Shown: one piece after another, positions 2,963 to 46,871 of the stretch
How positions within the stretch are numbered: the stretch's first letter is position 1
Layout: every line of letters begins with the position of its first letter
DNA from: an uncultured Bacilli bacterium
Lineage (GTDB): Bacteria > Bacillota_I > Bacilli_A > RF39 > UBA660
DNA: 64,000 nucleotides
Direction of reading: 5' to 3'
Assembly (NCBI GenBank): GCA_934086485.1
Contig: CAKOIF010000001.1
Span: forward strand, 55,438-119,437
The notes under the pieces: generated by a model
What the model saw: the letters and a program-made list of their open reading frames with translations, nothing else
Database searches by the model: none
Told to the model about the DNA's origin: nothing
Translations under genes and position numbers: made by a program

Positions 2963-3127
2963 CTAGTATTAATTTTCATAAATTATATACTTTTAAGAAA
3001 AAGCATCCCTGTATTTATCTTATATCCATTATAATTTAACCATTTTTTTGAGCAATTTTCAAGCCCTTTTCCCGAAAATTGGTACCTAAGTTTTCCAAAA
3101 AGTATATAATTTGCGAAAGGACACCCC
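2963..3127. promoter_or_regulatory. putative invertible promoter switch, copy 1 (left arm 2963-3000, 91-bp core 3001-3091, right arm 3092-3127)
   Basis: The arms are imperfect inverted repeats. AAATTATATACTTTT (2980-2994) is exactly complementary to AAAAGTATATAATTT (3098-3112). The core is homologous to 9142-9232 and 14124-14214, and to the reverse complement of 44015-44107. Confidence 0.7.
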
Positions 3128-3153
3128 AGTATTTATAAGGGATGGAGAAGATT

Positions 3154-4107
3154 ATGATAAAAAATAATAATGTAAAAATAATGGGTATAATTGCAACTGT
3201 GTTATTACTCATAATAGTAATAACAGCATCATTTGCATACTTTGGTTCATTTAATGTAAATTTAAATAATAATGTAGCAGTAAATATTAATTCTACACCG
3301 GTAGGCAATGGAACATTTATATCAAATGCAACCCAGTTAAATTTACAAGTACCCGCAGCAAATATGAGTTCAACATCCTCAAATAATACTGTAGCTGCTG
3401 CATCAAATACTGCAACACTTTCAGTATCACTTACAAGTGGAAACGATGAAATAGAAACAACTTGTACATTTGATATATATTATGAATATACAGGAAGTAA
3501 TTTCTATGGTGTAAGTCCTAATACAAAAACAAGTGGAGCAAATAAAGAAATAACAATGACCGTAAATGCCCCAAGTGGAACAAGTAATTTTAGTACAGAA
3601 ACAAATTTTGATTATAATACCACTACTGGTTGGGTAACAGAAAATAATAAAAGAAAAGTTAAACTAGTGGAAAATGCAAGCATATCAAATTATGAAACAA
3701 CAGCAACAACCCAAGAATATACATTTACAGGCAAATATTATAATTTAGATATAAGTCAAGAACAACTAGCAAATAAATCATTTACAGGTATTATTTATGC
3801 AAGTAAGAAAGAATGTGTAAGTAAAGAAGCACCAATAACTTTTAGCATATCAAACTCTAGTGTAGTAACTACTTATTATGCAAAGAAGGGAATGACTTGG
3901 GAAGAATGGATTAATAGTGAGTATTATGATAGTAAGTCTAATATTACCATTGCAAAGGGCGATAGCGTAGTTATTATAACAACCACTGATACCGAAGTAT
4001 GCACAGATTTTATTGAAATAAACCATTCACAAACACAAAAATATAATGATGTAATTATTAATAAAATGGAATATAATATATCTTATTATGGTAGCTGCGT
4101 TGATTAA
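3154..4107 (+). CDS. membrane-anchored surface protein, paralog P1 (short form, distinct C-terminal domain)
   Basis: Start moved to ATG 3154 by analogy with the paralogs (GGAG RBS 7-8 nt upstream). Has an N-terminal hydrophobic anchor. Shares a ~200-aa module with P2/P3 (NATQLNLQVPAANMS, TTCTFDIYYEY, GKYYNL). Confidence 0.75.
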   Translation: MIKNNNVKIMGIIATVLLLIIVITASFAYFGSFNVNLNNNVAVNINSTPVGNGTFISNATQLNLQVPAANMSSTSSNNTVAAASNTATLSVSLTSGNDEIETTCTFDIYYEYTGSNFYGVSPNTKTSGANKEITMTVNAPSGTSNFSTETNFDYNTTTGWVTENNKRKVKLVENASISNYETTATTQEYTFTGKYYNLDISQEQLANKSFTGIIYASKKECVSKEAPITFSISNSSVVTTYYAKKGMTWEEWINSEYYDSKSNITIAKGDSVVIITTTDTEVCTDFIEINHSQTQKYNDVIINKMEYNISYYGSCVD

Positions 4108-6367: not shown

Positions 6368-7288
6368 ATGCAATTTAATAAATTATATGCTGAATCTGGT
6401 TTCATTAGAGATTTAGCATTCAAGAAATTATTTCTCGAAACTCCAGAGTTTCTTAACTTTGTTTATGAATACTGCCTACAACTTCTTAGTCTTCCTTTTG
6501 ATGATACAATTGATTTACTTGATAATAATGTAAATGATAATATAAATATTAAAAATAGAGAAACAGATTTACTTTACGAGTCAAAAAAATATTTAGTAAA
6601 TATCGAAGGAAATAGTCAAACTTCAATAAGCGTTAATTTAAAAAATTTATCTTATTTGTGTGCTTTACTTTTAAGACAAGTTAAACCTGGTGCGGAAGAT
6701 AAGATTAAAAATGTTATTCAAATAAATATTAATAATCATAGTCCGTTTAAAACAAAAAACTTTATAAATATTACAAAATTAATTGATAGCATTACTGGAA
6801 AGGTAAGAAATGGACAAATTGCAATCGTCGATTTTAATCTTGATTATTATGATGACATAGCATATAATGAAATTGATAGTTTACCTGATGCTGACCCAAG
6901 AAAAATATTTTATTTACTTACAAAGGAAAATAATGATAAATATTATGGGTTATATAAAAATAGTGTATTAGGGAAAATGTTAGTAAGGAGAATGGAAATG
7001 ATGATAGAAAATTTTGATGCAATATTTTATTATGATAAAGACAAATTTAATGAAAGGGTTGCAAAAGAAGTTGGTTTCGAAGAAGGAAAAGCAGTTGGTT
7101 TAAATGAAGGCAAAACAATTGGCTTAAATGAAGGAAGAAATGAAGGAATTGCCATTGGCTTAGACAAAGGCAAACGAGAAATAATTTTAAGAATGCTAAA
7201 CGATAATGTTCCAGATTTAGATATTATTAAATATTCTGGCGTTACTGAAAGTGAGCTAGAATATATTAAGGAAAGTATAGGTAAGTAA
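6368..7288 (+). CDS. Rpn/YhgA-like PD-(D/E)XK nuclease family putative transposase
   Basis: D...E.Q-type core (RETDLLYESKKYLVNIEGNSQ). Typical C-terminal EG-rich repeats (GFEEGKAVGLNEGKTIGLNEGRNEG) followed by an ML..G.S.E.I tail. Confidence 0.6.
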   Translation: MQFNKLYAESGFIRDLAFKKLFLETPEFLNFVYEYCLQLLSLPFDDTIDLLDNNVNDNINIKNRETDLLYESKKYLVNIEGNSQTSISVNLKNLSYLCALLLRQVKPGAEDKIKNVIQININNHSPFKTKNFINITKLIDSITGKVRNGQIAIVDFNLDYYDDIAYNEIDSLPDADPRKIFYLLTKENNDKYYGLYKNSVLGKMLVRRMEMMIENFDAIFYYDKDKFNERVAKEVGFEEGKAVGLNEGKTIGLNEGRNEGIAIGLDKGKREIILRMLNDNVPDLDIIKYSGVTESELEYIKESIGK

Positions 7289-9103: not shown

Positions 9104-9268
9104 CTAGTATTAGTTTTCGTAAATTATATACTTTTGAGAAAGTACATCCTCGTATTTATCTTATGTCTATTATAATTTAACCATTTTTTTGAGCAATTTT
9201 CAAGCCCTTTTATCGAAATTTGGTACCTCAATTTTCCTAAAAGTATATAATTTATGAAAGAATACCCC
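9104..9268. promoter_or_regulatory. putative invertible promoter switch, copy 2 (left arm 9104-9141, core 9142-9232, right arm 9233-9268)
   Basis: Perfectly complementary 15-mers at 9121-9135 and 9239-9253. Same architecture and orientation as copy 1. Confidence 0.7.
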
Positions 9269-9296: not shown

Positions 9297-10970
9297 ATGG
9301 AAAAAAATAATGTAAAATTAATTGGAGTATTTGCAAGCGCTTTATTACTTGCAATAATTGTAACAGCATCGTTTGCATATTTTGGTTCATTTGATACTAA
9401 TTTAACAAATAATGTAGCCGTAAATGTAAATTCAGTATCACCTGGAGATGCAACATTTACCTCAAATGCAACGCAGTTAAATTTACAAGTACCAGCGGCA
9501 AATATGAGTCAGACAGCCTCGAATAATGAAATAGCGGCAGCCTCAAATACTGCAACACTAACAGTAAATTTAACTGGAGCAGCAAACTTGCTTACAACTT
9601 GTACATATGATATAGTTTATGAATATGATAGTACCTCAAATGTATATGGTAAAAGTCCGACTACAAAAAATGGTAACAAAGAAATAACATTACAAGTATC
9701 AAATGTAAATGGAACAAATAACTTTGCAAATGAAAAGAACTTTGATTATGATTCAAGTTGGAGTGGACTAAAAAGAACTCTAGTAAGTGGAGCAACAATA
9801 TCAAGTAATGGCTCGCTTACTACTCAAAATATATCAATAACTGGAAAGTATTATAACTTAACAATATCACAATCTTCTTTAGAGGGAAAAGCTTTTACAG
9901 GAAAAATATATGTAACAAATCATAGTTGTAGTACAAGTGAACCAGCATATATAACATTATTGAATAAGTATGGTGGAAAAGATAGTATAACAGAGCTTCC
10001 AGATAGTGCCTTTGAAAATGTATCTACCGCAAGTGATAAAGGTATGTATGCAAAAGCTGATGATTATACTGCAACAACAGGAATGAAATCTTACTATTAC
10101 AGAGGTGCCGTAGATAATAACTGGGTACAATTTGGAAAAGAAGGAGATAAAGATATATACTGGAGAATAATAAGAATTAATGGCGATGGAAGTATAAGGA
10201 TGATATACTCTGGTACAACAAAACCAGAAAGTGGTACAGCGGCAGTAATGACTGGAACAGGTACTCAAATAAGCACAAGTTTCTTTAATAGTAGTAGAGA
10301 TAAAGCAGAGTATGTCGGTTATCAGTATATAGAAGGACAACAACATGGTTATGGAAAATGTAATGGAACAAGTGCAAGCTGTACGGTAAATGAAAATACA
10401 GTATATAATAGTGCAATAAAACAGGCAATAGATAAGTGGTATGAAGGAACAACATTAGAAAAAGATGTAGCAACAAAACCATTAGTATCACAAGACCAAA
10501 TATTCTGTAATGATAGAAGTGCATCATCAACCCAATCAGCAGCTTGGACATCAACAGGAGCTACATATTACTATGGAGCATATGGAAGATTAACACAATC
10601 TACAAAAAGCCCACAATTAACTTGTCCTGAAGAAAATGATAAATTTACATTAAAGGAAAGTAGTATAGGAAATAAAGCGTTAGAATACCCAGTGGGACTT
10701 ATAACAGCGGATGAAGTAGCAATGGCAGGTGGAGTAGTTGGCGCAGGTAATAGTTCATATTACTTGTATACAAACCAAGTATATTGGTCGGGGTCGCCTT
10801 ATAATTTCAGTTCTAGTGGAGGTACTCGGGAATTTATTGCGATTTCTTCAGGTTACCTTGACCATAGTAGTGTGAATATTTATCGTGGCGCCCGTCCCGT
10901 CATAAGTTTATCCTCTTCAGTTAAATTATCGGGCAGTGGAACATATGATGATGTGTATGTAGTAAGCTAG
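9297..10970 (+). CDS. membrane-anchored surface protein, paralog P2 (long form)
   Basis: N-terminal anchor plus the module shared with P1/P3. C-terminal domain is shared with P3 and distantly with P4 (YWRIIRINGDGSIRMIYSG, IFCNDR, ARPVISLSS..GSGT). Confidence 0.8.
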   Translation: MEKNNVKLIGVFASALLLAIIVTASFAYFGSFDTNLTNNVAVNVNSVSPGDATFTSNATQLNLQVPAANMSQTASNNEIAAASNTATLTVNLTGAANLLTTCTYDIVYEYDSTSNVYGKSPTTKNGNKEITLQVSNVNGTNNFANEKNFDYDSSWSGLKRTLVSGATISSNGSLTTQNISITGKYYNLTISQSSLEGKAFTGKIYVTNHSCSTSEPAYITLLNKYGGKDSITELPDSAFENVSTASDKGMYAKADDYTATTGMKSYYYRGAVDNNWVQFGKEGDKDIYWRIIRINGDGSIRMIYSGTTKPESGTAAVMTGTGTQISTSFFNSSRDKAEYVGYQYIEGQQHGYGKCNGTSASCTVNENTVYNSAIKQAIDKWYEGTTLEKDVATKPLVSQDQIFCNDRSASSTQSAAWTSTGATYYYGAYGRLTQSTKSPQLTCPEENDKFTLKESSIGNKALEYPVGLITADEVAMAGGVVGAGNSSYYLYTNQVYWSGSPYNFSSSGGTREFIAISSGYLDHSSVNIYRGARPVISLSSSVKLSGSGTYDDVYVVS

Positions 10971-11060: not shown

Positions 11061-12917
11061 ATGTCTTTATTAATTGTAATTATAACATCTGTTATAATGG
11101 GACTACTTCCAACAGGGATAAAATATTTATCTGTAATGGCAAGCAATCTACTTCCTAAAAATTTAAAGCATAAATATCAAAATAGTAGTTTTTATTTAAA
11201 AAAGTATAGAGAAGTTTATGATATAGCTATTTCTTTGAAGTTTAGTGATAAATTCAAACTAGGCTTAATAAGTAAAAAAGTCCTTAAAAAAATGACTTCT
11301 TTAGATTTGATTGATATTGTGGATAATTTAAAATATGATGAAAATAAACTTAAATTTCTTTTGAAAAGTGAAGTTTTAAAAAACTTATTTAAAATGGATA
11401 GTAAAATAACCTTTAATGATAAAAATTTTTATGAATCACTATATAATAGTGTAAATGATGATGAAAAAATAAATCTGCTTACTCACATAAATAATGATGA
11501 ATTTGTAATAGAAAAATATGATCATTTAAAGAAAAAATTAAGTGATAAGAATAAATGTAAAATTATATGTTCATTAGAAAATGATGATAATAAGACAAAA
11601 CTTATTAATGATGTAAAAATTGAAAGTTTGACATATCAAATTCTTTGTACATATAAAAGTTTTGAAAAAGTTGAGAATTATTTATTGTCTTTAAAAGATT
11701 TATATCAATATTATTTAGTAAAACTTATGAGTGAGGAAGAAATTATAAGACTTCTTGAGAAAAATTTATTAATTAAACAAATATTAAGATGTACAAATAA
11801 TAAAGAAAGGTTTAATACTTATTTTTCATATCTTTCCTTAAAAGATCAAATAGATGTTTTAAAAATAAATCCTAATAGTGAAATGGTTTTATCAACATAT
11901 TTAAATATAAAAGATATGCTTAATGAAAAAGAAAAATTAGAAATTTTAGTAAATATTCTAAAAAATGGTGATGAGAATATTAAAAAAGAAGCATTTAATT
12001 ATTTACCAAACTCCGTAATAAAGGATATTATTTTAACAAATGAAGAAAAACATAGTGATGAGAATGTTAAATTATATAATGGTGTTTCTGATAAAGTAAC
12101 TTTTGGCGTAGAACTTGAATCATCGCATAAAGATAGTTTATTAATTAAAAAGTTAAGTACAATAAACTCTAATTGGATTTTAAAAGGAGATAGTTCAATT
12201 AAGGGAGGAGTGGAAATAGTTTCACCAATACTTCATTATGATAAAAAATCCTTAATGAATTTAAAATATGTTTGTGATTTTATGGAAGCAAATAATTTTG
12301 AGGTAACAAATGAGTGTGGTGGACATATTCATATTGGCTTTGACTTTTTTGACAATGTTAAAGAACTAGAAATGCTTTATATGATATATGGCAATGCTCA
12401 AGATATTTTCTTTGATATATGTAATCGTAAGGGTTCTATCCAAAGACCTAAATTATTAGATTATGCTAAACCTATTACGAGTAAATTATATTTAGCAATT
12501 ATTACTCATAAATTTGATGATAATATAAATTTAAATGCTTTTGTTAAAGAAATGAAAGAATTACAATCAGGTAGATTTTTTGATATAAATATATTAAATG
12601 CCCAAAGTAAATTGAAAAATACAATTGAATTTAGATTTCCAAATGGAGAAATTAATTATGAAGAAGTTTTACTTAATATTACTTTGATTATAAAACTTTG
12701 TATGGCTGCGAAAAAATATGCAAGTATAAATTGTTATGATGAAAAATATTCAGTAATTAAACTTTTACAGTGTGAGACAAATAAAGATACTAGAAAAAAC
12801 ATTTTATTTAAAATTCTTTTTGATAATGACGAGATGCTTAAAAATATTTATAATGAAAGATATGAAGCAAATAATAAAGAAGATGTTTTTGAAAGAAGAT
12901 TTGTAATTGATTTTTAA
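11061..12917 (+). CDS. amidoligase-domain protein (Amidoligase_2-like) with long helical N-terminal region, paralog A1
   Basis: C-terminal motifs FGVELES, GGVEIVSP, CGGHIHIG and IEFRFPNG. Paralog of 41630..43405. Confidence 0.6.
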   Translation: MSLLIVIITSVIMGLLPTGIKYLSVMASNLLPKNLKHKYQNSSFYLKKYREVYDIAISLKFSDKFKLGLISKKVLKKMTSLDLIDIVDNLKYDENKLKFLLKSEVLKNLFKMDSKITFNDKNFYESLYNSVNDDEKINLLTHINNDEFVIEKYDHLKKKLSDKNKCKIICSLENDDNKTKLINDVKIESLTYQILCTYKSFEKVENYLLSLKDLYQYYLVKLMSEEEIIRLLEKNLLIKQILRCTNNKERFNTYFSYLSLKDQIDVLKINPNSEMVLSTYLNIKDMLNEKEKLEILVNILKNGDENIKKEAFNYLPNSVIKDIILTNEEKHSDENVKLYNGVSDKVTFGVELESSHKDSLLIKKLSTINSNWILKGDSSIKGGVEIVSPILHYDKKSLMNLKYVCDFMEANNFEVTNECGGHIHIGFDFFDNVKELEMLYMIYGNAQDIFFDICNRKGSIQRPKLLDYAKPITSKLYLAIITHKFDDNINLNAFVKEMKELQSGRFFDINILNAQSKLKNTIEFRFPNGEINYEEVLLNITLIIKLCMAAKKYASINCYDEKYSVIKLLQCETNKDTRKNILFKILFDNDEMLKNIYNERYEANNKEDVFERRFVIDF

Positions 12918-12977: not shown

Positions 12978-13937
12978 ATGAAAAAAGTATTATTGATTTT
13001 AAGTTTATTATTTCTTCCTTTAAAGATATATGCATATTCTGATTATGTCGTTTTAGGAGGAAAAACATTAGGCATTAAAGTAGACACTAAAGGTGTGATG
13101 GTTATTGGCTTTTATAAAGTTAATGGAAAATATAATAAGGGAAATCCTGCCTTAGCAAATGGCGATTATATTATAAGAATTAACGATATAGAGGTAAACG
13201 ATGTAAATAGTTTGTCAAATGCTATTGAAAAATTTATTAGAGATGAAAATGTTGATGTAACTTTTATTAGAAAAGGAATAGAGAAAAAGACTAAACTTGA
13301 TTTAATAAGTATTGATGGTGTTATTAAAACTGGTCTTTTTGTCAAAAGTTCTATAATGGGTATTGGAACACTTTCATACATTGATCCCAATACATTAATT
13401 TATGGCGCTTTAGGACACGAAATTGTTGAAAGTAATACTAATGAAAGAGTAGAAATAAAAGATGGAACAATTTTTAATAGTTTTGTAACCGGTATTGAAA
13501 AAAGTGTAATAGGAACTCCAGGAAGTAAAATAGCTAAATTTAATTATAATTATGAATTTGGTAATATTGTAAAAAATACAAGGTATGGAATATTTGGTAT
13601 TTATAATGATAAAATAGATCAAAATAATTTAATTAAAATAGGTAATGCTAAAATAGGAAGTGCAAAAATTAAAACTGTTTTGAATGGTGAAAAAGAGGAA
13701 GAATTTAATATTGAAATAACAAAAATAAATGATACCAGTGATATAAAAAATATTACTTTTAAAATAGACGATGATAGGCTTTTATCACTTACTGGTGGAG
13801 TTATTCAAGGTATGAGTGGTTCACCAATTGTTCAAAATGATGAAGTTGTGGGTGCTCTTACACATGTTATTGTTGATAATCCTTATTCTGGTTATGGTAT
13901 TTTTATTCAAAAAATGCTCGAAGAGGGTGAAAGATAA
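12978..13937 (+). CDS. spoIVB: SpoIVB-like stage IV sporulation serine peptidase (S55)
   Basis: Signal peptide, PDZ-like segment (GDYIIRINDIEVNDVNSL) and catalytic region GMSGSPIVQNDEVVGALTHV. Confidence 0.7.
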   Translation: MKKVLLILSLLFLPLKIYAYSDYVVLGGKTLGIKVDTKGVMVIGFYKVNGKYNKGNPALANGDYIIRINDIEVNDVNSLSNAIEKFIRDENVDVTFIRKGIEKKTKLDLISIDGVIKTGLFVKSSIMGIGTLSYIDPNTLIYGALGHEIVESNTNERVEIKDGTIFNSFVTGIEKSVIGTPGSKIAKFNYNYEFGNIVKNTRYGIFGIYNDKIDQNNLIKIGNAKIGSAKIKTVLNGEKEEEFNIEITKINDTSDIKNITFKIDDDRLLSLTGGVIQGMSGSPIVQNDEVVGALTHVIVDNPYSGYGIFIQKMLEEGER

Positions 13938-14000
13938 GTATATTATTTTTGTATTAACATATAATATTTTTAGAAAACATTTTGTTTTCTTGACATAGAT

Positions 14001-14026
14001 GAGTTTACAAGCGTAAACTCTTTTTG
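14001..14026 (+). terminator. rho-independent terminator after spoIVB
   Basis: GAGTTTAC-aagc-GTAAACTC hairpin followed by T5. Confidence 0.65.
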
Positions 14027-14085
14027 TTTGAAAAAATTTATTAATTAAAAAAAGTTTATAAAATTCTTACAAACCCAGTATTTAC

Positions 14086-14250
14086 CTAGCATCAGTTTTC
14101 CTATATCATATACTTTTGAGAAAAATCATCCTAGTATTTATGCTATCATCAATATAATTTAATCATTTTTTTGAGTGATTTTCAAGTCCTTTTCCCGAAA
14201 ATTGGTACCTCTATTTTCCTAAAAGTATATGATTTGTGAAAATAGACCAT
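14086..14250. promoter_or_regulatory. putative invertible promoter switch, copy 3 (left arm 14086-14123, core 14124-14214, right arm 14215-14250)
   Basis: ATCATATACTTTT (14105-14117) is exactly complementary to AAAAGTATATGAT (14221-14233). The substitution relative to copies 1 and 2 is present in both arms. Confidence 0.7.
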
Positions 14251-14277: not shown

Positions 14278-16017
14278 ATGAAGATTAATAAAAATAAATT
14301 TAAAAGCATTATTGCCTCAGTATTTTTACTTGTTTTAGTAATAGGTGCAGCATATGCTTATTTAGGTACTTTTAATGTTGATTTAAGTAATGATATAGCA
14401 GTTAATATTAATTCAACAAGTCCAGGTAATATAGCTTTTGTAGCAAATGCTACTCAATTAAACTTGCAAGTACCAGCATCAAGTATGGGTTCATATTTAG
14501 CAAATAATACTGTAGCGGCAATGGAAAATAATACAGTATTAAGTGTAAGTCTTCAAGGAGCAAATGGATTTAAAACAACTTGTACATATGATATAGTTTA
14601 TGAATATGATAGTTCATCATTAGTTTATGGAAGTTCTAACGCTCCAGTTACAAGTGGTGCAACAAAAGAAATAACATTACAAATAGAAAATGTAACAGGA
14701 ACTAATTATTATGAAACAGAAAGAAATTTTAATTATTATACAGGTTCATATAATGGTAATACAAATGATAAATGGACATCAACCACTAAAAGAACATTAG
14801 TAAGTGGTGCAACAATAGAAAGCAAAGGGACTATTACAAGTCAAAGTATAAATGTAATAGGTAGATATTATAATTTAGATGCTTATCAAGATTTAGGTGG
14901 TAAAGCTTTTAATGGTACAATCTATGTAGAAAATGTTAATTGCAGTCTAGAAGAAACTGAACCAATGGAATTTGGCTATATGACAATTTTAAAAAACAAT
15001 GGAGGTAAAACAGCGATAGAAGCAAAATCAGTTGATTTAAGTGTAATACCTAAAACAAATGAAGGAATGTATGCAGCGCAGGATGATTTAGGAACATCAT
15101 ATTATTTTAGAGGAGCAGTAGATAATAACTGGGTAAAATTCGGCAAATATAAAAAAAATACATATATTTATTCATACATATATGATGAAGAAAATCAGTA
15201 TAAAACAAACCTTTTTACTGATGAATGTGATGATACCAAAATGGATTGTATGTTATTAGCATCAGAAGGTGATGATATGTACTGGAAAATAATACGAATA
15301 AATGGTGATGGAAGTATAAGAATGATTTATAGTGGAATAACACCTCCAACTGAAGATACTAGTCTAGCAAATTTAGATGATAATAATATTGGATTCTCTC
15401 AATTTAATGAAACGAATGATAAAGCAGAGTATGTTGGCTATATGTATACCATCGGAGAACAACACGGAATAACACAAAATAGTAAAATTAAAGCATATAT
15501 TGACAATTGGTACGAAAATTACACTAACTTTGTTTCTAATGATTTAATAAGTAATGAAATATTTTGTAATGACAGAGAACTTCGAAAAGGTTATACTTGG
15601 TCAGATAGAGATGAAATTGATTATGCACCTTACGAAAGAGCAACGTATTCAGTTTATTACCCAATATTAACTTGTACTAACAACAACGATAAATTTACAG
15701 TAAGTACAAATAATGGAAATGGAGCTTTAACGTACCCAATAGGTTTGTTAACATCGGATGAAATACTTATGTCTTGTTTTGACGCACGAGGACATTCATT
15801 TAATGCTGATTGCTTTTTGAGTTCGAATTTAGAGTATATGTTGCTATCGCCAGCGGACTTTAATGTTGATGCTGAAATTTATATAATATCGGATAATGTT
15901 TTTAATACTGCAAATGTAATTTATTCATATGGTGTAAGACCTGTAATAAGCCTATCATCAGATGTTGTGTTAACGGGAGATGGAACTTGGAATAATCCTT
16001 ATGAGGTTGTAAGTTAA
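14278..16017 (+). CDS. membrane-anchored surface protein, paralog P3 (long form)
   Basis: Start moved to ATG 14278 (GGAGAGG RBS), because the 14236 GTG extension lies inside the switch. Same modules as P2. Ends VRPVISLSSDVVLTGDGTWNNPYEVVS. Confidence 0.8.
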   Translation: MKINKNKFKSIIASVFLLVLVIGAAYAYLGTFNVDLSNDIAVNINSTSPGNIAFVANATQLNLQVPASSMGSYLANNTVAAMENNTVLSVSLQGANGFKTTCTYDIVYEYDSSSLVYGSSNAPVTSGATKEITLQIENVTGTNYYETERNFNYYTGSYNGNTNDKWTSTTKRTLVSGATIESKGTITSQSINVIGRYYNLDAYQDLGGKAFNGTIYVENVNCSLEETEPMEFGYMTILKNNGGKTAIEAKSVDLSVIPKTNEGMYAAQDDLGTSYYFRGAVDNNWVKFGKYKKNTYIYSYIYDEENQYKTNLFTDECDDTKMDCMLLASEGDDMYWKIIRINGDGSIRMIYSGITPPTEDTSLANLDDNNIGFSQFNETNDKAEYVGYMYTIGEQHGITQNSKIKAYIDNWYENYTNFVSNDLISNEIFCNDRELRKGYTWSDRDEIDYAPYERATYSVYYPILTCTNNNDKFTVSTNNGNGALTYPIGLLTSDEILMSCFDARGHSFNADCFLSSNLEYMLLSPADFNVDAEIYIISDNVFNTANVIYSYGVRPVISLSSDVVLTGDGTWNNPYEVVS

Positions 16018-20549: not shown

Positions 20550-20599
20550 TTAAATATGCTAGCAGCAAATATATGTTCGATATTAGAAAAGGAGGAATT

Positions 20600-21190
20600 A
20601 TGTTATTAGAGCTTGAAAATCATTTAAACTCAAAATATCAAGATGTTACAAACTATGTTATAAAAAAATCACAAACAAGCAATAATTTTATTAAGGAAAT
20701 TAATAAATATTTAAATTACAATGTTAATAACGCTAAATTTGATAAACGTGACATTGGAAAATTAGAAAAAATGACATTGTTAAATATTCAGAACATTATC
20801 GGAGGAAGTTTTATTTTGATACATAGAGTACAAATTGAAAATGTATCTACGCCAGATGCGAAATATATAAATAAAAATATTTTTAATGGTTCAAAGTATT
20901 TTGAAATTAAATCTCCAAAGAAAAGTTTAAATGAAAACTCTAAATTAAAGAAAATATATAGGCAGTTAGATGAAGCAAAACATCAGTCAAATAATGTGAT
21001 AATATCTTTACTTAGAGATGAATGTGATTTAAGTAATGAAGAAGCCAATTTACAAATAATTAATTGCTTAAATAATATCAGATATCATTGGATTGATACT
21101 ATCATTTTAATTGGCAAAAGTAATTATATAAAAATATACAAAAAAAGAAAGAACCTTAACGGAATGCCATTGTGGTCCTTTCTTTTATAA
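20600..21190 (+). CDS. hypothetical protein with possible PD-(D/E)XK-like motif
   Basis: Start moved to ATG 20600 (AAAGGAGG RBS). Segment PDAKY...YFEIKSP resembles a D..ExK nuclease core. This is a weak call. Confidence 0.4.
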   Translation: MLLELENHLNSKYQDVTNYVIKKSQTSNNFIKEINKYLNYNVNNAKFDKRDIGKLEKMTLLNIQNIIGGSFILIHRVQIENVSTPDAKYINKNIFNGSKYFEIKSPKKSLNENSKLKKIYRQLDEAKHQSNNVIISLLRDECDLSNEEANLQIINCLNNIRYHWIDTIILIGKSNYIKIYKKRKNLNGMPLWSFLL

Positions 21191-33319: not shown

Positions 33320-33444
33320 AAATGTTTCAAAAAACATAGACAATAGTAATTATTTTTGATATATTTAATTTGCTCGGAAAAAATAAGTTCTTTATATGTA
33401 ATAAAATGACTTTAAAATCACACACCTTAGAAAGGTATATAACT
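33320..33444 (+). promoter_or_regulatory. conserved promoter plus 5' leader module, copy 3 (TAGACA 33337-33342, 17-nt spacer, TATATT 33360-33365)
   Basis: Homologous to 6250-6367, including the upstream AAATGTTTCAAAAAA block. Confidence 0.65.
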
Positions 33445-34307
33445 ATGTTTAATAATCTTTACTCTAATTCAGGATTCCTACTTGATTTAGCTTTTAAAAA
33501 AATATTTCTTGAAACACCACAACTACTTAACTATGTATATAATTATACCTTAGAATTACTTGATCTACCAATAGACAATAGTATTCATTTACTTGATAAC
33601 AATGTAAATGATAATATAAATATTAAAAATAGAGAATCAGATTTACTTTATGAATCAGATAATTATTTAGTAAATATCGAAGGCAATTGTCAAACTTCAA
33701 TAAGTGTTAATTTAAAAACTTATCATATCTATGTGCTTTACTTTTAAGACAGGTAAAACCTAGTGATGCGGATAAAGTTAAAAAAGTATTGCAAATTAAT
33801 ATAAATAATAAAAGTCCGTTTAAAACAAAAAATTTTATAAATATAACTGAATTAATTGATAGTATAACTAATGAAGTAAGAAATGAACTTTTTTTTATAG
33901 TCGATTTTAATCTTGAAAATAGTTATAATATGACATATAATGAAATTGCTAGTTTACCGGGTGATGACCCAAGAAAGATATTTTATGTATTTACAAGTGA
34001 AAATAATGATAAATATTATGAGTTATATAAAAATAATAAACTAGGTCAATTAATATTAAGGAGGATGGAATATATGGTAGAAAATTTTGATGCAATATTT
34101 TATTATGATATAGATAAATTTAATGAGCAAGTAGCCAAAGAAGTTGGTTTTGAAGAAGGTAAAACTGCAGGAATGGCTATTGGTATAGACAAAGGCAAAA
34201 AAGAAATAATTTTAAATCTACTAAAAGCAGGGATGAATGAATTAGATATTATGAAGTACTTAGGTATCACTGAAAGTGATCTTGAGGAAATTACAAAGTG
34301 TAAGTAA
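33445..34307 (+). pseudogene. Rpn/YhgA-like nuclease paralog, frameshifted
   Basis: Collinear with 6368..7288 but split into two frames (33445-33747 and 33789-34307). There is a one-nt difference in an A tract (A5 at 33714-33718 versus A6 in the intact copy). Confidence 0.7.
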
Positions 34308-36814: not shown

Positions 36815-36947
36815 ATTAATTCCTTTCTTTAATTAAATCGAAACCCACACTCATCCTTGAGTACATTAATAATAACATATATTTTTCACTTTGTAAATTA
36901 CTCAATTTGAGTAATTTTTTAAAAATTATTTTAAAATGTATAATTTT

Positions 36948-36990
36948 AGTATTTATCTAGTATTATTTTTTATAAATTATAACTTTTTTG
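36948..36990. repeat. orphan, degenerate copy of the switch left flank and left arm
   Basis: AGTATTTATCTAGTATTATTTTTTATAAATTATAACTTTTTT matches 9095-9138 at about 35 of 43 positions, and 2956-3000 similarly. Confidence 0.55.
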
Positions 36991-37060
36991 AATACAAATA
37001 AATTAATTATTTTACATTGCTTTACAAAAACGCATGTAAATACTTTACAAAAAATAATTT

Positions 37061-41629: not shown

Positions 41630-43405
41630 ATGAATATAGATGAAATAAAACTAAACTATTATTTAAGTACAAATAAAAAACATTTATATAAACTAAAACA
41701 CGATTCACATTTTTTAAAACTACTTGGGAAAAATATAGATTTTATTAATGATACAATTTTAGATAATGTTTTAAATGATATTAATGCTGTTATTGATTTT
41801 CTTCTTTATGTTAAGACAGATGAAAATAAATATAATTTTTTGCTTATTCCTAAAATAAGACAAATTTACTTTAAAAATACATATCAAGATATTTTGTTTA
41901 GTGATAATTCTTATTATGATAAACTTTATTTAAAACTTTCTGATGAAGAAAAAGATAAATTTTATATGTATATTAAAATAAGTTATCTTCCTACATTTTT
42001 AAAAAATAATTTTAATATTATTGGTAAAGAAAAAGTATTTTATATTCTTATGAACTATCAATTTGATGATAAAGTTTATGAAATGTTTTTAAGTATGTTT
42101 GAGTGTAAAATTAAGATAAAAGGTTTACTTCTTAAAATAAAAGATTATAATGTTAAATGTAAATACTTTGATATTCTTCCTATTTATGAGCAAAAAAGAT
42201 GTATACCTTATTTACCAAATAGACTAGATTACATTAATAATAAAGAATTACTTCCATATATTATTGCTGCGGAAGGTAATGAAAAATTAATATTTAAATA
42301 TTATAATGATTTATCTTATAATGATAAATTAACTGTTTTAGAAAATATAAAATATGATAATGATTTGCAAATATATTTACTTAATCACTCTGGGTTTGAT
42401 AAAAAGGAGTATCTATCTGCTTTAAGAGTTATATTGGGCATTATTCACGATCCAAAAACTATCGCGGATTTATATGAAAAAATAGATATAAATGTTGTTA
42501 AAAAAGTGCAAGGTGATTGTATGCCTAACACAAGTGATAACTTTTATATGGACTATAATATTGATAAAAAAATTAAATTTGGTGTAGAATTAGAATGCTC
42601 TAATATGTATAATGATTTGCTTTTAAAGTTTAAAAAGTTTGGAGGGTGGAATATAGTTTCTGAGGAATCAGTAAAAAATGGTATTGAATTTACTTCACCA
42701 GTTTATCATTATGATAAAGAAAGTTTGCAAAATTTAAAAGATATGTGTGCATTTTTAAATAATAATGAGTTTAATTATAGCGATGATGCAGCGGGTCATA
42801 TTCATTTTGATGTTCATATATTTAATAATGTTAAAGAGTTAATGACATTTTACAAAATATTTTGTAATGTCGAGGACATCTTATATTTGATTTTTAATAG
42901 GCCAAATTCTTTTATTCGAAATAATATTAATACTTATGCTATTCCTTTATCTAATAGATTAAATAAAAATATTGTTAACTCTTTTCATCCAAAGTTTTCT
43001 TCGATAGAGCAGTTTACTTCCTTTGTTCATTATTCTCAATATGGTAGACACTCTAGTATTAATATTAATAACGTTTATGAAAATACTAAAAATACCATTG
43101 AAATAAGAATTCCAAATATAGAAATGAATTTTGAATATTTACACGAAAATATAATGCTTATTTGTTATTTAATTATGATTTCAAAAAAGATTGCTAATGA
43201 AGATAAATATAGTAAAAATAATATTTTGGTTAATTTATTAACTGTTGATATGACTATAGAAAAAAGAAAAGATATTTTATTAAAACTTTTATTTTCAGAT
43301 AATAATTATTTACATAATATTTTTGATTATCGTTTTAAGAGAAATATTGAGGTTAATAAAGACACAACATTTATCAAGGAAAATACTTCCCATCTAACTT
43401 TTTAA
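41630..43405 (+). CDS. amidoligase-domain protein, paralog A2
   Basis: Motifs FGVELECS, NGIEFTSP, AAGHIHFD and IEIRIPN. Helical N-terminal region shares the FSDNSYYDKLY block with A1. Confidence 0.6.
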   Translation: MNIDEIKLNYYLSTNKKHLYKLKHDSHFLKLLGKNIDFINDTILDNVLNDINAVIDFLLYVKTDENKYNFLLIPKIRQIYFKNTYQDILFSDNSYYDKLYLKLSDEEKDKFYMYIKISYLPTFLKNNFNIIGKEKVFYILMNYQFDDKVYEMFLSMFECKIKIKGLLLKIKDYNVKCKYFDILPIYEQKRCIPYLPNRLDYINNKELLPYIIAAEGNEKLIFKYYNDLSYNDKLTVLENIKYDNDLQIYLLNHSGFDKKEYLSALRVILGIIHDPKTIADLYEKIDINVVKKVQGDCMPNTSDNFYMDYNIDKKIKFGVELECSNMYNDLLLKFKKFGGWNIVSEESVKNGIEFTSPVYHYDKESLQNLKDMCAFLNNNEFNYSDDAAGHIHFDVHIFNNVKELMTFYKIFCNVEDILYLIFNRPNSFIRNNINTYAIPLSNRLNKNIVNSFHPKFSSIEQFTSFVHYSQYGRHSSININNVYENTKNTIEIRIPNIEMNFEYLHENIMLICYLIMISKKIANEDKYSKNNILVNLLTVDMTIEKRKDILLKLLFSDNNYLHNIFDYRFKRNIEVNKDTTFIKENTSHLTF

Positions 43406-43413
43406 GGTAATCT

Positions 43414-43746
43414 ATGTTTATAGACAATTTTTTAAATTCATTAAATACTAAAAGTGATAATGCTTTATTTTCTTTTTTGAATTCCCTTGCAACGAAATGT
43501 TATATTGATTATTATTTTAATATTTTATTTAAACTTAATTATGAAATAAATTTTAATGATGAATCTTTTTATGATAAACTTTTACAAAATGAAATTAGTT
43601 TTAAAACATATTTAATCATCCTTAAAGGAATAACAAATGAAAATATAAAATTAAAGTATACATTAGTTTTTATTGAAAAATTTTCCTTTAACGATGATTT
43701 TTTATACGATATTTATAAAACCTTTAATAATGATGCAAACTATTAA
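43414..43746 (+). CDS. small protein resembling the N-terminal helical region of the amidoligase paralogs
   Basis: NFNDESFYDKLLQNEIS resembles TFNDKNFYESLYNSVND (A1) and LFSDNSYYDKLYLKLSD (A2). May be a gene fragment. Confidence 0.4.
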   Translation: MFIDNFLNSLNTKSDNALFSFLNSLATKCYIDYYFNILFKLNYEINFNDESFYDKLLQNEISFKTYLIILKGITNENIKLKYTLVFIEKFSFNDDFLYDIYKTFNNDANY

Positions 43747-43993
43747 TATCGCATATTTTATGTAATGAATTTATAACTAATATTACTAGGAAATTTAAAA
43801 AAATTAAGTGTGAAAAATGTGGCTCAACACAATTTAATTATTCGTATAACTATAATATTAACCGACTCTGCACAAATTAGCTCTATAAAATATGGTTAAC
43901 TTCATAAAACTATTTATGGGGGTAAGGAGGAGGTCTGCCTATTAAACTAAAAAACTATAAAAATATATTAAATAATTATTAATCTAAATAATA

Positions 43994-44142
43994 TTTTTCA
44001 TTTACAGTATATAAATTTAGTACATGAATTTTATGGAAAAAGGGCTTGAAAATCACTCAAAAAAATGGTTAAATTAAAATAGATATAAGGTAAATACAAG
44101 GGTTCTCTTTCTCAAATGTTTAAGATAAGAGAAAAATGACCC
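43994..44142. promoter_or_regulatory. switch copy 4 with core in the opposite orientation (core about 44015-44107) and degenerate arms
   Basis: 44015-44107 matches the reverse complement of cores 1-3 (GGGCTTGAAAATCACTCAAAAAAATGGTTAAATT...). The downstream CCCAAGTATTTATAAGGGATTGGAG RBS block keeps the same orientation as in copies 1-3. Confidence 0.7.
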
Positions 44143-44171
44143 AAGTATTTATAAGGGATTGGAGTGATATT

Positions 44172-45575
44172 ATGAAAAATAAAAAGGTATATGTAATTTT
44201 AATAGTTCTTATTTTAATTGGAAGTATATTTTTAACTTATAATATTTATCAAAATAAAAATAAAGTAATTAAAACTAAAAAAAATAAACAAAATAATTTA
44301 GCAATAATGATTAAGGAAGATGGAGCAACTGATTATACAAAATCAAATTCAAAAGATATACCTAAAGGAAATTATGTATTAAATAGAGATAAAAGTTATT
44401 GCAAAAATAATGGTAAAATAGGTAATTATGATAGCTCTTTAGGTAAGGTTAGTTTTTTATTTATAGGTTCAGATAACTGCTATTTATATTTTGATTATAA
44501 AGATAATCCGCCAGAAATATTAAATGTTTCGGTAACTGGTAAAATATTAACTGCAGATTTAACGGATGATAATAATTTATCAGGATATGCAGTAAATACG
44601 AGTAATGTTACTCCATCCTCTTGGACTAGTATTTCCGGAAAAAACTATAAATTAAATATTACAATTTCTACTCCTGGTACTTATTATTTATGGGTAAAAG
44701 ATAATTCAAATAATATAACTAAATATGAAAATATTATTATAAATAAAACCGCTAGTGATATTATTGTTGCAAAATCCGAGACGAATTATTCAATTGTTTC
44801 AGAAAATGGGCTTAGATATGAGGGTGCTAGTCCTGATAATTACATATGTCTTGATAATAATACAAGTGGCAGTTGCTCAAATACTAATTTATTATTTAGA
44901 ATAATAGGCCTATTTGAGGAGGAATATTCTTTGGATGGGACAAATAGTGCCGGTAAAACTAATATGATTAAAGTTATTAAACCAACTCATTATGCAACTT
45001 CGTATTGGCATTCATCAAGAAATAATGATTGGTCAAATTCAGATATTAAAAAAGCATTAAATGAAACATACTTGACTGAACTTCTTTCATTAAATAGCAA
45101 TATTGAAAATAAAATTGTAAATGCAAAATGGTATTTAGGAGCTAAAGATACTAGTGACACTAACGACACAAATAATTCTGTTAACAATTATTATAGTGAT
45201 GAACGTTCTACTGAATATATATTATATAACCGAAGTGCATATGCTTTTGCAAAAGTTGGATTATTATATCCGAGTGATTGGGGATATGCTGCAATTTATA
45301 CTAAATGTAGTCGAAGCTGGTCAATGTTTGTAACTGGATACGGAAAATATTCAGGATGTGATTCAAATAATTGGCTTGGCTATAGTAGTAATGAATGGTT
45401 ATTAACACCTCAAGTTTCATATGAAGCAAGCGCTGCAGTTAAATCAACAAAAAGATACGTTGATAAATATGATGTAAATGGTTATAAATTCGCATATCGT
45501 CCAGTATTATATTTAGATGCAAGTTATGCAATGATTGGATCTGGCACTGAATCTGATCCATATCGTTTGGTGTAA
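44172..45575 (+). CDS. membrane-anchored surface protein, paralog P4 (different N-terminal module, related C-terminal domain)
   Basis: Start at ATG 44172 after the GGAG RBS. Has an N-terminal TM segment. The C-terminal region parallels P2/P3 (LLFRIIGL, VGLLYPSD, AYRPVLYLDAS..GSGTESDPYRLV). Confidence 0.75.
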   Translation: MKNKKVYVILIVLILIGSIFLTYNIYQNKNKVIKTKKNKQNNLAIMIKEDGATDYTKSNSKDIPKGNYVLNRDKSYCKNNGKIGNYDSSLGKVSFLFIGSDNCYLYFDYKDNPPEILNVSVTGKILTADLTDDNNLSGYAVNTSNVTPSSWTSISGKNYKLNITISTPGTYYLWVKDNSNNITKYENIIINKTASDIIVAKSETNYSIVSENGLRYEGASPDNYICLDNNTSGSCSNTNLLFRIIGLFEEEYSLDGTNSAGKTNMIKVIKPTHYATSYWHSSRNNDWSNSDIKKALNETYLTELLSLNSNIENKIVNAKWYLGAKDTSDTNDTNNSVNNYYSDERSTEYILYNRSAYAFAKVGLLYPSDWGYAAIYTKCSRSWSMFVTGYGKYSGCDSNNWLGYSSNEWLLTPQVSYEASAAVKSTKRYVDKYDVNGYKFAYRPVLYLDASYAMIGSGTESDPYRLV

Positions 45576-45632
45576 AATAAATTGACTATACCAAATAAAT
45601 ATAGTAAAATAATTATATTGATTGGGGGAAAT

Positions 45633-46871
45633 ATGAAAGAAAAATATTTAATAATAAATGCTGGAAGTTCTTCACTTAAATTTTCACTTTATGAGATGCC
45701 TGATAATATTGAAATAGTTAATGGAATAGTGGAAAAAATAGGTGAGAGTGATAGCTCATATACACTTAAATTTAATGGTCAAAAGATTAAAAAGTCTAAA
45801 GAAATATTAGATCATGAATGTGCTGCAAATGTAATGATGGAAGAATTATTACAAGATCATTTTATTAATGATATAAGTGAGATTGCTGGTGTAGGTCATA
45901 GAATACTTCATGGAGGAGAATTTTATGATAGTTCTGTACTTATTGATGAAGAAGTTTTTGAAAATATTAAATCACTAACTAAACTTGGACCACTTCATCA
46001 TCCAGGAGAACTTGCGGGTATTTCGAGTATAACTAAAATTATGCCTAGTGTACCTCAAGTTGCAGTATTTGATACATCTTTTCATCAAACAATGCCTAAA
46101 GAAAACTATTTATATGCTGTACCATATTCTTGGTATACTGAAAATGGTGTAAGAAAATATGGCTTTCATGGAACATCTCATAGATATATAACTGAAAGAC
46201 TTAAGGGTATTTATGGAGAAAATGTAAATGCAATTATTTGTCATATTGGATCTGGTGCAAGTATATCTTGTATAAAAGAAGGAAAATGCTATGATACCTC
46301 AATGGGACTTACTCCTTTAGATGGACTTGTTATGGGAACTAGATGTGGTTCAATAGATCCATCAATTATAGATTATATTAGCAAAGAAAGAGGACTTACT
46401 ATAGCTGAAATTAATGAAATATTAAATAAGAAAAGTGGTCTTTTAGGAATGTGTGGTAAAAATGACTTTAGAGATGTAACTGCACTTGCGGAAAGTGGAA
46501 ATGAAAACGCTATAAATGCCATTAAAATAATGGAAAATTCAATTGCTAAATATATTGCAAATTATTATGTAGAACTTAGTGGAAATGTTAATGCATTAGT
46601 ATTTACTGCTGGATGTGGTGAAAATGCAAGTAGTTTAAGAAAAGATATTATGGAAAAAATATCTTGTATAGGCGTTAAACTTGATGAAAACATGAATAAC
46701 AAAATCGCCGGATTTAAAGACATTCATGAAGGAATTATCTCACAAGTTGGTTCATCTTTTGATTGTTTAGTAATTCCAACTAATGAAGAATATATGATAT
46801 TAAATGATACTTATAATATAATTAAAGATAGAAAAAATGTTAGGGTGCTAGAAAAGAAAATTAATGCATAA
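45633..46871 (+). CDS. ackA: acetate kinase
   Basis: Begins MKEKYLIINAGSSSLKFSLY. Motifs GHRILHGG and GFHGTSH. Start moved to ATG 45633 after a GGGGGAA RBS. Confidence 0.95.
   Translation: MKEKYLIINAGSSSLKFSLYEMPDNIEIVNGIVEKIGESDSSYTLKFNGQKIKKSKEILDHECAANVMMEELLQDHFINDISEIAGVGHRILHGGEFYDSSVLIDEEVFENIKSLTKLGPLHHPGELAGISSITKIMPSVPQVAVFDTSFHQTMPKENYLYAVPYSWYTENGVRKYGFHGTSHRYITERLKGIYGENVNAIICHIGSGASISCIKEGKCYDTSMGLTPLDGLVMGTRCGSIDPSIIDYISKERGLTIAEINEILNKKSGLLGMCGKNDFRDVTALAESGNENAINAIKIMENSIAKYIANYYVELSGNVNALVFTAGCGENASSLRKDIMEKISCIGVKLDENMNNKIAGFKDIHEGIISQVGSSFDCLVIPTNEEYMILNDTYNIIKDRKNVRVLEKKINA

Follow-up and report, generated by a model that had tools for sequence, protein, structure and literature searches.

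Four copies of a short element precede related cargo genes in the window (the whole 64-kb stretch of DNA analysed here), and they probably represent one family of promoter invertons, with copy 4 a mosaic that has lost its left site and is locked ON; we place the probability of this reading at about 72%. In this low-GC gut Bacilli bacterium, each switch would stand 5' of a gene whose product is a variable extracellular protein with a membrane anchor, and a recombinase encoded elsewhere would exchange strands in the spacer region of the flanking sites and thereby flip the core. Depending on the orientation, the promoter would then face the gene (ON) or the opposite direction (OFF), and in this genome copies 1-3 would be OFF and copy 4 ON. 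According to this reading, one rearrangement destroyed the inner half-site of the copy-4 left site together with the conserved flank and truncated the upstream gene, which would leave one competent site, a core that could not be flipped, and a constitutively expressed cargo gene.

The window has a GC content of 25%, and nearly every gene is located on the plus strand. Genes recognised by eye from the translations include nusB, xseA, the genes of trigger factor and a SpoIVB-type peptidase, lon, murF, ddl, dnaG, sigA, comEA/comEC, ackA, ftsW, and glmS. In a genome collection scanned for the core promoter motif described below, the single match was a 2-kb Hadza MAG contig (L028), which was labelled 'uncultured Bacilli bacterium'. 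Two paralog pairs adjoin the switches: Amidoligase_2-domain genes are present at 11061-12917, near the copy 2/3 loci, and at 41630-43405, near the copy 4 locus, while a second pair near switch-bearing regions is formed by 6368-7288 and the split ORFs at 33370-34307. These pairs suggest segmental duplication around the switches. An ORF at 20573-21190 gave a borderline match to the CdiA_C toxin domain (E = 7e-6, 26.5 bits against a cutoff of 26.6).

Architecture of the switches and the predicted promoter

Copies 1-3 can be aligned over approximately 250 nt with a mean column identity of 89%. Their parts follow the same order, namely a conserved left flank (..CTCACAAACCCAGTATTTACCTAG..), a 29-nt left site, a core of approximately 89 nt, and a 29-nt right site; 3' of the right site, a fixed block (ACCCCAGTATTTATAAGGGAT.GGAG) leads to the ATG start codon. 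Copy 1 extends over 2973-3119 (sites 2973-3001 and 3091-3119; cargo gene 3154-4107), copy 2 over 9114-9260 (sites 9114-9142 and 9232-9260; cargo gene 9297-10970), and copy 3 over 14096-14242 (sites 14096-14124 and 14214-14242; cargo gene 14278-16017). All three are intact, and their predicted promoter lies on the minus strand, facing away from the cargo gene, which corresponds to the putative OFF state.

The 29-nt arms form a dyad (TTTTCnTAAAT - TATATAC - TTTTnGAGAAAA), in which two half-sites of approximately 11 nt flank an asymmetric spacer; this arrangement, judged from the sequence, is that of a site-specific recombinase core site. A repeat search found arms of 27-29 nt with 83-89% complementarity in copies 1-3, and in the 18 complete copies other than copy 4 the best ungapped 27-nt inverted repeat reached 78-89% (21-24/27).

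The core motif TTGAAA-17-TGgTTAAAT was present with zero mismatches to the search pattern in all four window copies, and its strand follows the core, being minus in copies 1-3 and plus in copy 4. Its -35 element, 17-nt spacer, and TGn -10 element are invariant across all copies, while the remaining core is variable. A consensus scanner recovered the same promoter-like site in all regions scanned (copies 1, 2, and 4), its strand being plus for copy 4 and minus for copies 1 and 2. However, promoter-like matches in these AT-rich regions (25% GC) were no commoner than in shuffled sequences, and the prediction of a promoter is based on conservation and geometry, not on the scan.

The scan results would also fit a core that is a protein-binding or RNA element, in which case its orientation would not mean ON or OFF, and so would two further features, a motif repeated three times per switch and the predicted folding of the ON-state leader into a long hairpin (both described below). 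We regard such a function as quite improbable, since the -35 element, the spacer, and the TGn -10 element are invariant while other core bases vary, and since subtypes B and C, whose core sequences are different, yet keep a TGn-extended -10 element on the same relative strand. No other promoter-like site recurs 5' of the cargo genes in the regions of copies 1, 2, and 4. In addition, a terminator is located between copy 2 and its upstream gene, indicating that the copy-2 cargo gene, and presumably the others too, needs its own promoter.

The repeated motif, CC(C)AGTATTTA, occurs once each in the left flank, the end of the core, and the RBS block (2955-2966, 3006-3018, and 3125-3137 in copy 1, with equivalents in copies 2-4). 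In the ON orientation, the core copy is predicted to pair with the RBS-block copy, and the 5' leader would form a long hairpin that carries the recombination site in its tip and leaves the Shine-Dalgarno sequence unpaired. The pairing of the leader stem is kept despite sequence differences between copies, with z values of -0.6 to -2.4.

A further segment of the window, 36941-36995 (AGTATTTATCTAGTATTATTTTTTATAAATTATAACTTTTTTGAA), is like the conserved left flank plus left site, without core or right site. It is located between a prepilin-peptidase-like gene and a comEA-like gene, was the best non-switch match (score 53), and appears to be an orphan half-switch.

Orientation of the copy-4 core and inversion within the family

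The core of copy 4 (44021-44106, plus strand) is homologous to the reverse complement of the copy 1-3 cores. In global alignments, 44015-44107 shared 82%, 79%, and 76% identity with the reverse complements of 3001-3091, 9142-9232, and 14124-14214, respectively, whereas identity to the copy 1-3 cores on the same strand was 45-47%. Local alignment of 43950-44172 with the three other upstream regions gave minus-strand scores of 117, 110, and 105, compared with a mean of 23-24 (sd ~3.3, maximum 38) for 500 dinucleotide-preserving shuffles and 53 for the highest-scoring unrelated 223-nt tile of the window. On the plus strand, the scores were 40-49, and the match was limited to the RBS block. This block (CCCAAGTATTTATAAGGGATTGGAG, 44140-44164) and the start codon ATG at 44172, both part of the fixed block at 44140-44174, are on the plus strand and co-linear with those of copies 1-3, which rules out inversion of the whole region. 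The original prediction, that the fourth core is reverse-complemented next to an un-inverted RBS block and start codon, is thus borne out, with a similarity above that of shuffled sequence, and its coordinates were right to within a few bases.

Within the copy-4 core, a predicted sigma-70-type promoter is located at 44046-44074 on the plus strand, consisting of TTGAAA (44046-44051), a 17-nt spacer, TG (44066-67), and the -10 element TTAAAT (44069-74). This predicted promoter faces the cargo gene, and copy 4 is assigned to the putative ON state.

Public collections scanned for the promoter motif provided 17 further copies, which were oriented relative to their RBS blocks: nine were OFF, six were ON with intact arms, and two were incomplete and left unscored. 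Loci L031 and L038, which come from different metagenomes, have flanks identical at 200/200 positions on either side and cores identical at 89/89 positions on opposite strands. Two variable inner arm positions are swapped between them, which places the crossover inside ATCATATACTTTT. Loci L049 and L050 possess identical arms and encode an identical 806-aa cargo protein, and their cores, 96% identical, lie on opposite strands. Finally, L029 is the syntenic ortholog of the window at 7.7-20.4 kb, with proteins 93-99% identical, and its copy 3 is ON; compared with window copy 3, the flanks are 97-98% identical and the core is on the opposite strand. The opposite orientations in these three pairs indicate that the family consists of genuine invertons. 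Together with the ortholog of the copy-4 locus, L040 (see below), they support the earlier proposal that the core has inverted at least once. Both orientations at one locus were thus found for the family, while copy 4 itself was seen only ON, with the opposite orientation only in L040.

The inverted core of copy 3 (14125-14213) is only 88% identical to that of L029, and the differences cluster at the core ends. The lower identity of the core than of its flanks may reflect an exchange of cores between loci.

Short AT-rich elements with terminal inverted repeats, present in several copies, could also be MITEs inserted independently in either orientation. For this family such an origin is extremely improbable, because all copies occupy the same place relative to the left flank, the RBS block, and one gene family, and no copy was found away from such cargo genes within the window. 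Moreover, identical loci differ solely by exact inversion between the repeats, and the alignment of copies 1-3 revealed no target-site duplication or direct repeats flanking the arms. A MITE or small non-autonomous transposon was rejected on the basis of these missing duplications, the fixed genomic context, and the exact inversion, and site-specific inversion of one element family is retained as the explanation.

Contigs L007, L032, and L048 end inside the core or at a switch arm, which fits mixed orientations in the population and equally fits assembly breaks caused by repeats. In L051 (1-252), the start of another cargo-like gene (MNKKIKIGLFA..) is present on the far side of the switch and reads away from it. 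This switch could be a two-way toggle or, as the start is at the contig end, an assembly mis-join through a repeated switch.

Mosaic structure and probable fixation of copy 4

The left (promoter-distal) site of copy 4 (TTTTTCATTTACAGTATATAAATTTAG, 43994-44020, plus strand) is degenerate. Its outer half-site and TATATA centre are recognisable, but the site has a 2-nt insertion, a deletion of approximately 9 nt has removed the inner half-site (..TTTnGGAAAA), and the conserved left flank is replaced. A scan with the arm consensus sequences recovered six sites in total for copies 1-3 and a single one for copy 4, with no partner nearby; on the left side of copy 4, no site was present within 8 mismatches of any arm consensus. 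Likewise, the repeat search found no arm pair in copy 4 comparable to those of copies 1-3.

The right (promoter-proximal) site at 44107-44135 (minus strand, reverse complement TTTTCTCTTATCTTAAACATTTGAGAAAG) was assigned to subtype B by arm comparison. It differs from the right site of L049/L050 at 2/29 nt, with one change in the central spacer, and the subtype-B right site occurs 5' of copy-4-like cargo genes adjoining ackA in related genomes. The possibility that the copy-4 right arm is a decayed arm of the copy-1-3 type was rejected, as the related loci show a distinct functional subtype.

The arms of copy 4 had been described earlier as poorly complementary, and this is indeed the case: the best 27-nt inverted repeat reaches 14/27 (52%), compared with 78-89% in the 18 other complete copies, and a single site is recognisable. 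The sequences show a left arm broken by indels beside a nearly intact right arm, rather than even decay of both. We interpret copy 4 as a mosaic: its core is of subtype A, its right site belongs to subtype B and is nearly intact, and its left site is destroyed. This refines the inversion claim, with copy 4 no longer read as a plain flip of a copy-1-3-type switch.

Comparison with L040, the syntenic ortholog of the copy-4 locus, delimits the rearrangement. The genes for 349-aa, 111-aa, and 591-aa (amidoligase-domain) proteins are 93-98% identical between the two, and the L040 switch shares the core subtype of copy 4, with 94% core identity, is oriented the other way (OFF), and has arms that match at 24/27 positions. 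Homology between the window and L040 ends at 43740, inside the upstream gene, and resumes only within the core. The DNA at 43741-43993 has no counterpart in L040 and stands in place of the conserved left flank and of the 3' half of the upstream gene; for this replaced DNA (253-287 nt), neither the window nor any of the retrieved loci gave a significant match. The upstream gene (43414-43746, plus strand), at the left edge of the rearrangement, is truncated to 110 aa, compared with 233 aa in L040. The same broken left arm is present in a variant of the copy-4 locus, L044/L045.

Loss of one site is also seen elsewhere in the family. In another strain, the copy-1 ortholog (L039 1-420, OIYS01000945.1) keeps the core and one site, while the other site and the entire cargo gene are deleted and a NUDIX gene lies directly next to it, which we read as a second route of decay for these switches.

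The mosaic raises the possibility that the orientation of copy 4 did not arise by a flip in place, and that recombination between sites of two different switches joined an A-type core, already in its present orientation, to a B-type right site and its cargo gene. In copy 4, an A-type core is indeed coupled to the right site, RBS, and cargo start of a B-type switch, and the two types meet inside the site. In related species, a copy-4-like cargo gene and ackA directly follow the spoIVB flank known from copy 3, and the core of copy 3 is less similar to L029 (88%) than its flanks are (97-98%). On the other hand, the window contains no parental B-type switch, and the A-type switch of L040 at the syntenic position makes it equally possible that the core flipped in place and the right side was converted afterwards. 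We consider an inter-switch origin of the copy-4 orientation a possible but less likely course of events.

In L049/L050 (1-1500) and L046, the spoIVB flank, which is the left flank of copy 3, is followed by one switch, a copy-4-like cargo gene, and ackA; the window counterparts of this junction are 12978-14124 and 44107-46871. The 30 kb with lon, murF, ddl, dnaG, and sigA must accordingly be located elsewhere in these relatives, and the synteny breakpoints coincide with switch sites. A still more tentative extension is that recombination between switches at the 29-nt sites shuffles cores, sites, and cargo genes and moves tens of kilobases, with copy 4 as a scar of such an event. If so, copy 4 would be a hybrid A/B switch locked ON as a by-product, and the phase-variation machinery would also drive the mosaic evolution of surface-protein genes and genome architecture in this lineage.

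Whichever way the mosaic arose, the copy-4 locus was ON in all nine contigs, from eight samples, namely L001-L003 and L055-L058 (0-3 mismatches over a 425-nt spacer) together with the variant L044/L045. In the variant, the cargo is 93% identical and a 73-nt indel represents a duplication in the distal core, and the switch is ON, so that the state has been kept through measurable divergence, which supports fixation. Assemblies, however, give the majority orientation only, and copies 1-3 were just as uniform (OFF in 23/23 near-identical-strain contigs whose upstream sequence covers the switch). Uniformity alone is therefore weak evidence for locking of copy 4, and the argument depends mainly on the missing half-site.

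In the C. difficile flagellar switch, mutation or deletion of a few bases in one inverted repeat is sufficient for locking (PMC8890394). RecV-type recombinases nevertheless tolerate poorly conserved repeats (PMC8890394), which would count against locking of copy 4. It might accordingly still work, through rare inversion or a distant partner site, with the assemblies showing its dominant ON state. The equal uniformity of copies 1-3 across the 23 scorable contigs, although the family clearly inverts, is compatible with this, as are the almost intact right site and the left sites of copies 1-3, which lie 30-41 kb away and are inverted relative to it. Yet the core has no partner site within 8 mismatches beside it, the left arm has lost its inner half-site to a deletion, and two diverged lineages, with cargo 93% identical, are both ON; a partner site in copies 1-3 would mean the inversion of a 30-41 kb stretch of housekeeping genes instead of a flipped promoter. 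A working copy 4 is thus unlikely. With one recognisable site and a constant orientation, copy 4 is most likely locked ON, in line with the original prediction that it may be locked; a single competent site would leave the core unable to flip and the cargo gene constitutively expressed.

Cargo proteins, related systems, and significance

The copy-4 cargo gene (44172-45575, plus strand) encodes a 467-aa protein with an N-terminal membrane helix, two beta-sandwich domains, and an unmodelled C-terminal domain. The AlphaFold cargo model has a mean pLDDT of 53 and is confident only for the N-terminal helix and the two beta-sandwich domains, which weakly resemble PKD/Ig domains, with no Foldseek match at E <= 0.001. 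None of the four cargo proteins received a Pfam/NCBIfam assignment, one having a weak sub-threshold DUF6273 tail, and the PDB sequence search of the cargo proteins was without match. The cargo family comprises at least 1332 homologs. Among the 120 homologs listed, there were only two source names, both 'hypothetical protein', and the MAGs were 'Bacilli bacterium' and 'Mycoplasma sp.'. The cargo proteins may be read as membrane-anchored, modular extracellular proteins.

No recombinase was detected by Pfam searches among 20 window ORFs, by a motif scan that covered every ORF of the window and of loci L028-L043, or on reading all window translations. The likeness to the C. difficile RecV, M. penetrans, and Bacteroides systems (PMC8890394, PMC2268961) leads us to infer a recombinase that acts in trans and is encoded elsewhere in the genome.

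This kind of system is well known, and no new mechanism is revealed here. In gene-shuffling systems, such as M. pulmonis vsa, M. agalactiae vpma, and the shufflons, one fixed promoter is present and inversions bring silent genes to it. This model was rejected for the present family, as each cargo gene has its own core with a predicted promoter and the inverted segment is approximately 89 nt of non-coding DNA. More similar is E. coli fimS (FimB/FimE), in which a promoter lies in a short invertible segment 5' of a surface-structure gene. The fimS switch occupies one locus of 314 bp, its repeats measure 9 bp, and its recombinase genes lie beside it. In contrast, four loci with 29-nt sites occur here within 64 kb, and no recombinase gene was found in the window. 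Mutations in the fimS repeats lead to locked-ON or locked-OFF strains, as cited in PMC8890394.

The closest functional match is the mpl (P35) lipoprotein gene family of M. penetrans, in which each gene has its own invertible promoter (Horino et al. 2003, as given in PMC2268961). Both families include many paralogous surface-protein genes over several loci, each with a short invertible element that bears a promoter (predicted in the present family), and the mpl genes are independently ON or OFF under recombinases acting in trans, as is proposed here. The present family differs in its walled, spore-former-like Bacilli host (spoIVB, murF, ddl, and ftsW are in the window), in its 29-nt dyad sites, in its unrelated cargo proteins with a membrane helix instead of a lipoprotein signal, and in the decayed and apparently fixed copy 4.

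The RecV switches of C. difficile (flgB, cwpV, cmrRST; PMC8890394) are likewise short invertible regulatory segments of a Firmicute, flanked by inverted repeats that are imperfect; several loci share one recombinase, and changes of few repeat bases lock a switch (PMC8890394). These switches differ from one another in sequence and mechanism (Rho-dependent termination in flg), whereas one core and one cargo family are found here, and the C. difficile locks were engineered (PMC8890394), whereas that of copy 4 would be natural, via rearrangement. The Bacteroides invertons of capsular polysaccharides and surface proteins (PMC8748976, PMC11602134) also form a multi-locus promoter family acting on surface structures in a gut commensal, and, as in the gut invertons catalogued by PhaseFinder or DeepInverton (PMC8748976, PMC11602134), orientation varies between metagenomic samples. 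They differ in phylum, repeat sequences, and cargo, and neither an adjacent nor a global invertase was found here.

The switches described here would represent a previously uncharacterised promoter-inverton family of uncultured low-GC gut Bacilli, present in Hadza and other human gut metagenomes, and would control a very large set of variable surface proteins (at least 1332 homologs). With three intact OFF copies and one putatively locked-ON mosaic, a single genome provides an internal control for read-level studies of switching. Copy 4 may be a natural equivalent of the engineered phase-locked mutants of C. difficile and E. coli, and it points to a surface protein that this strain would display constitutively.
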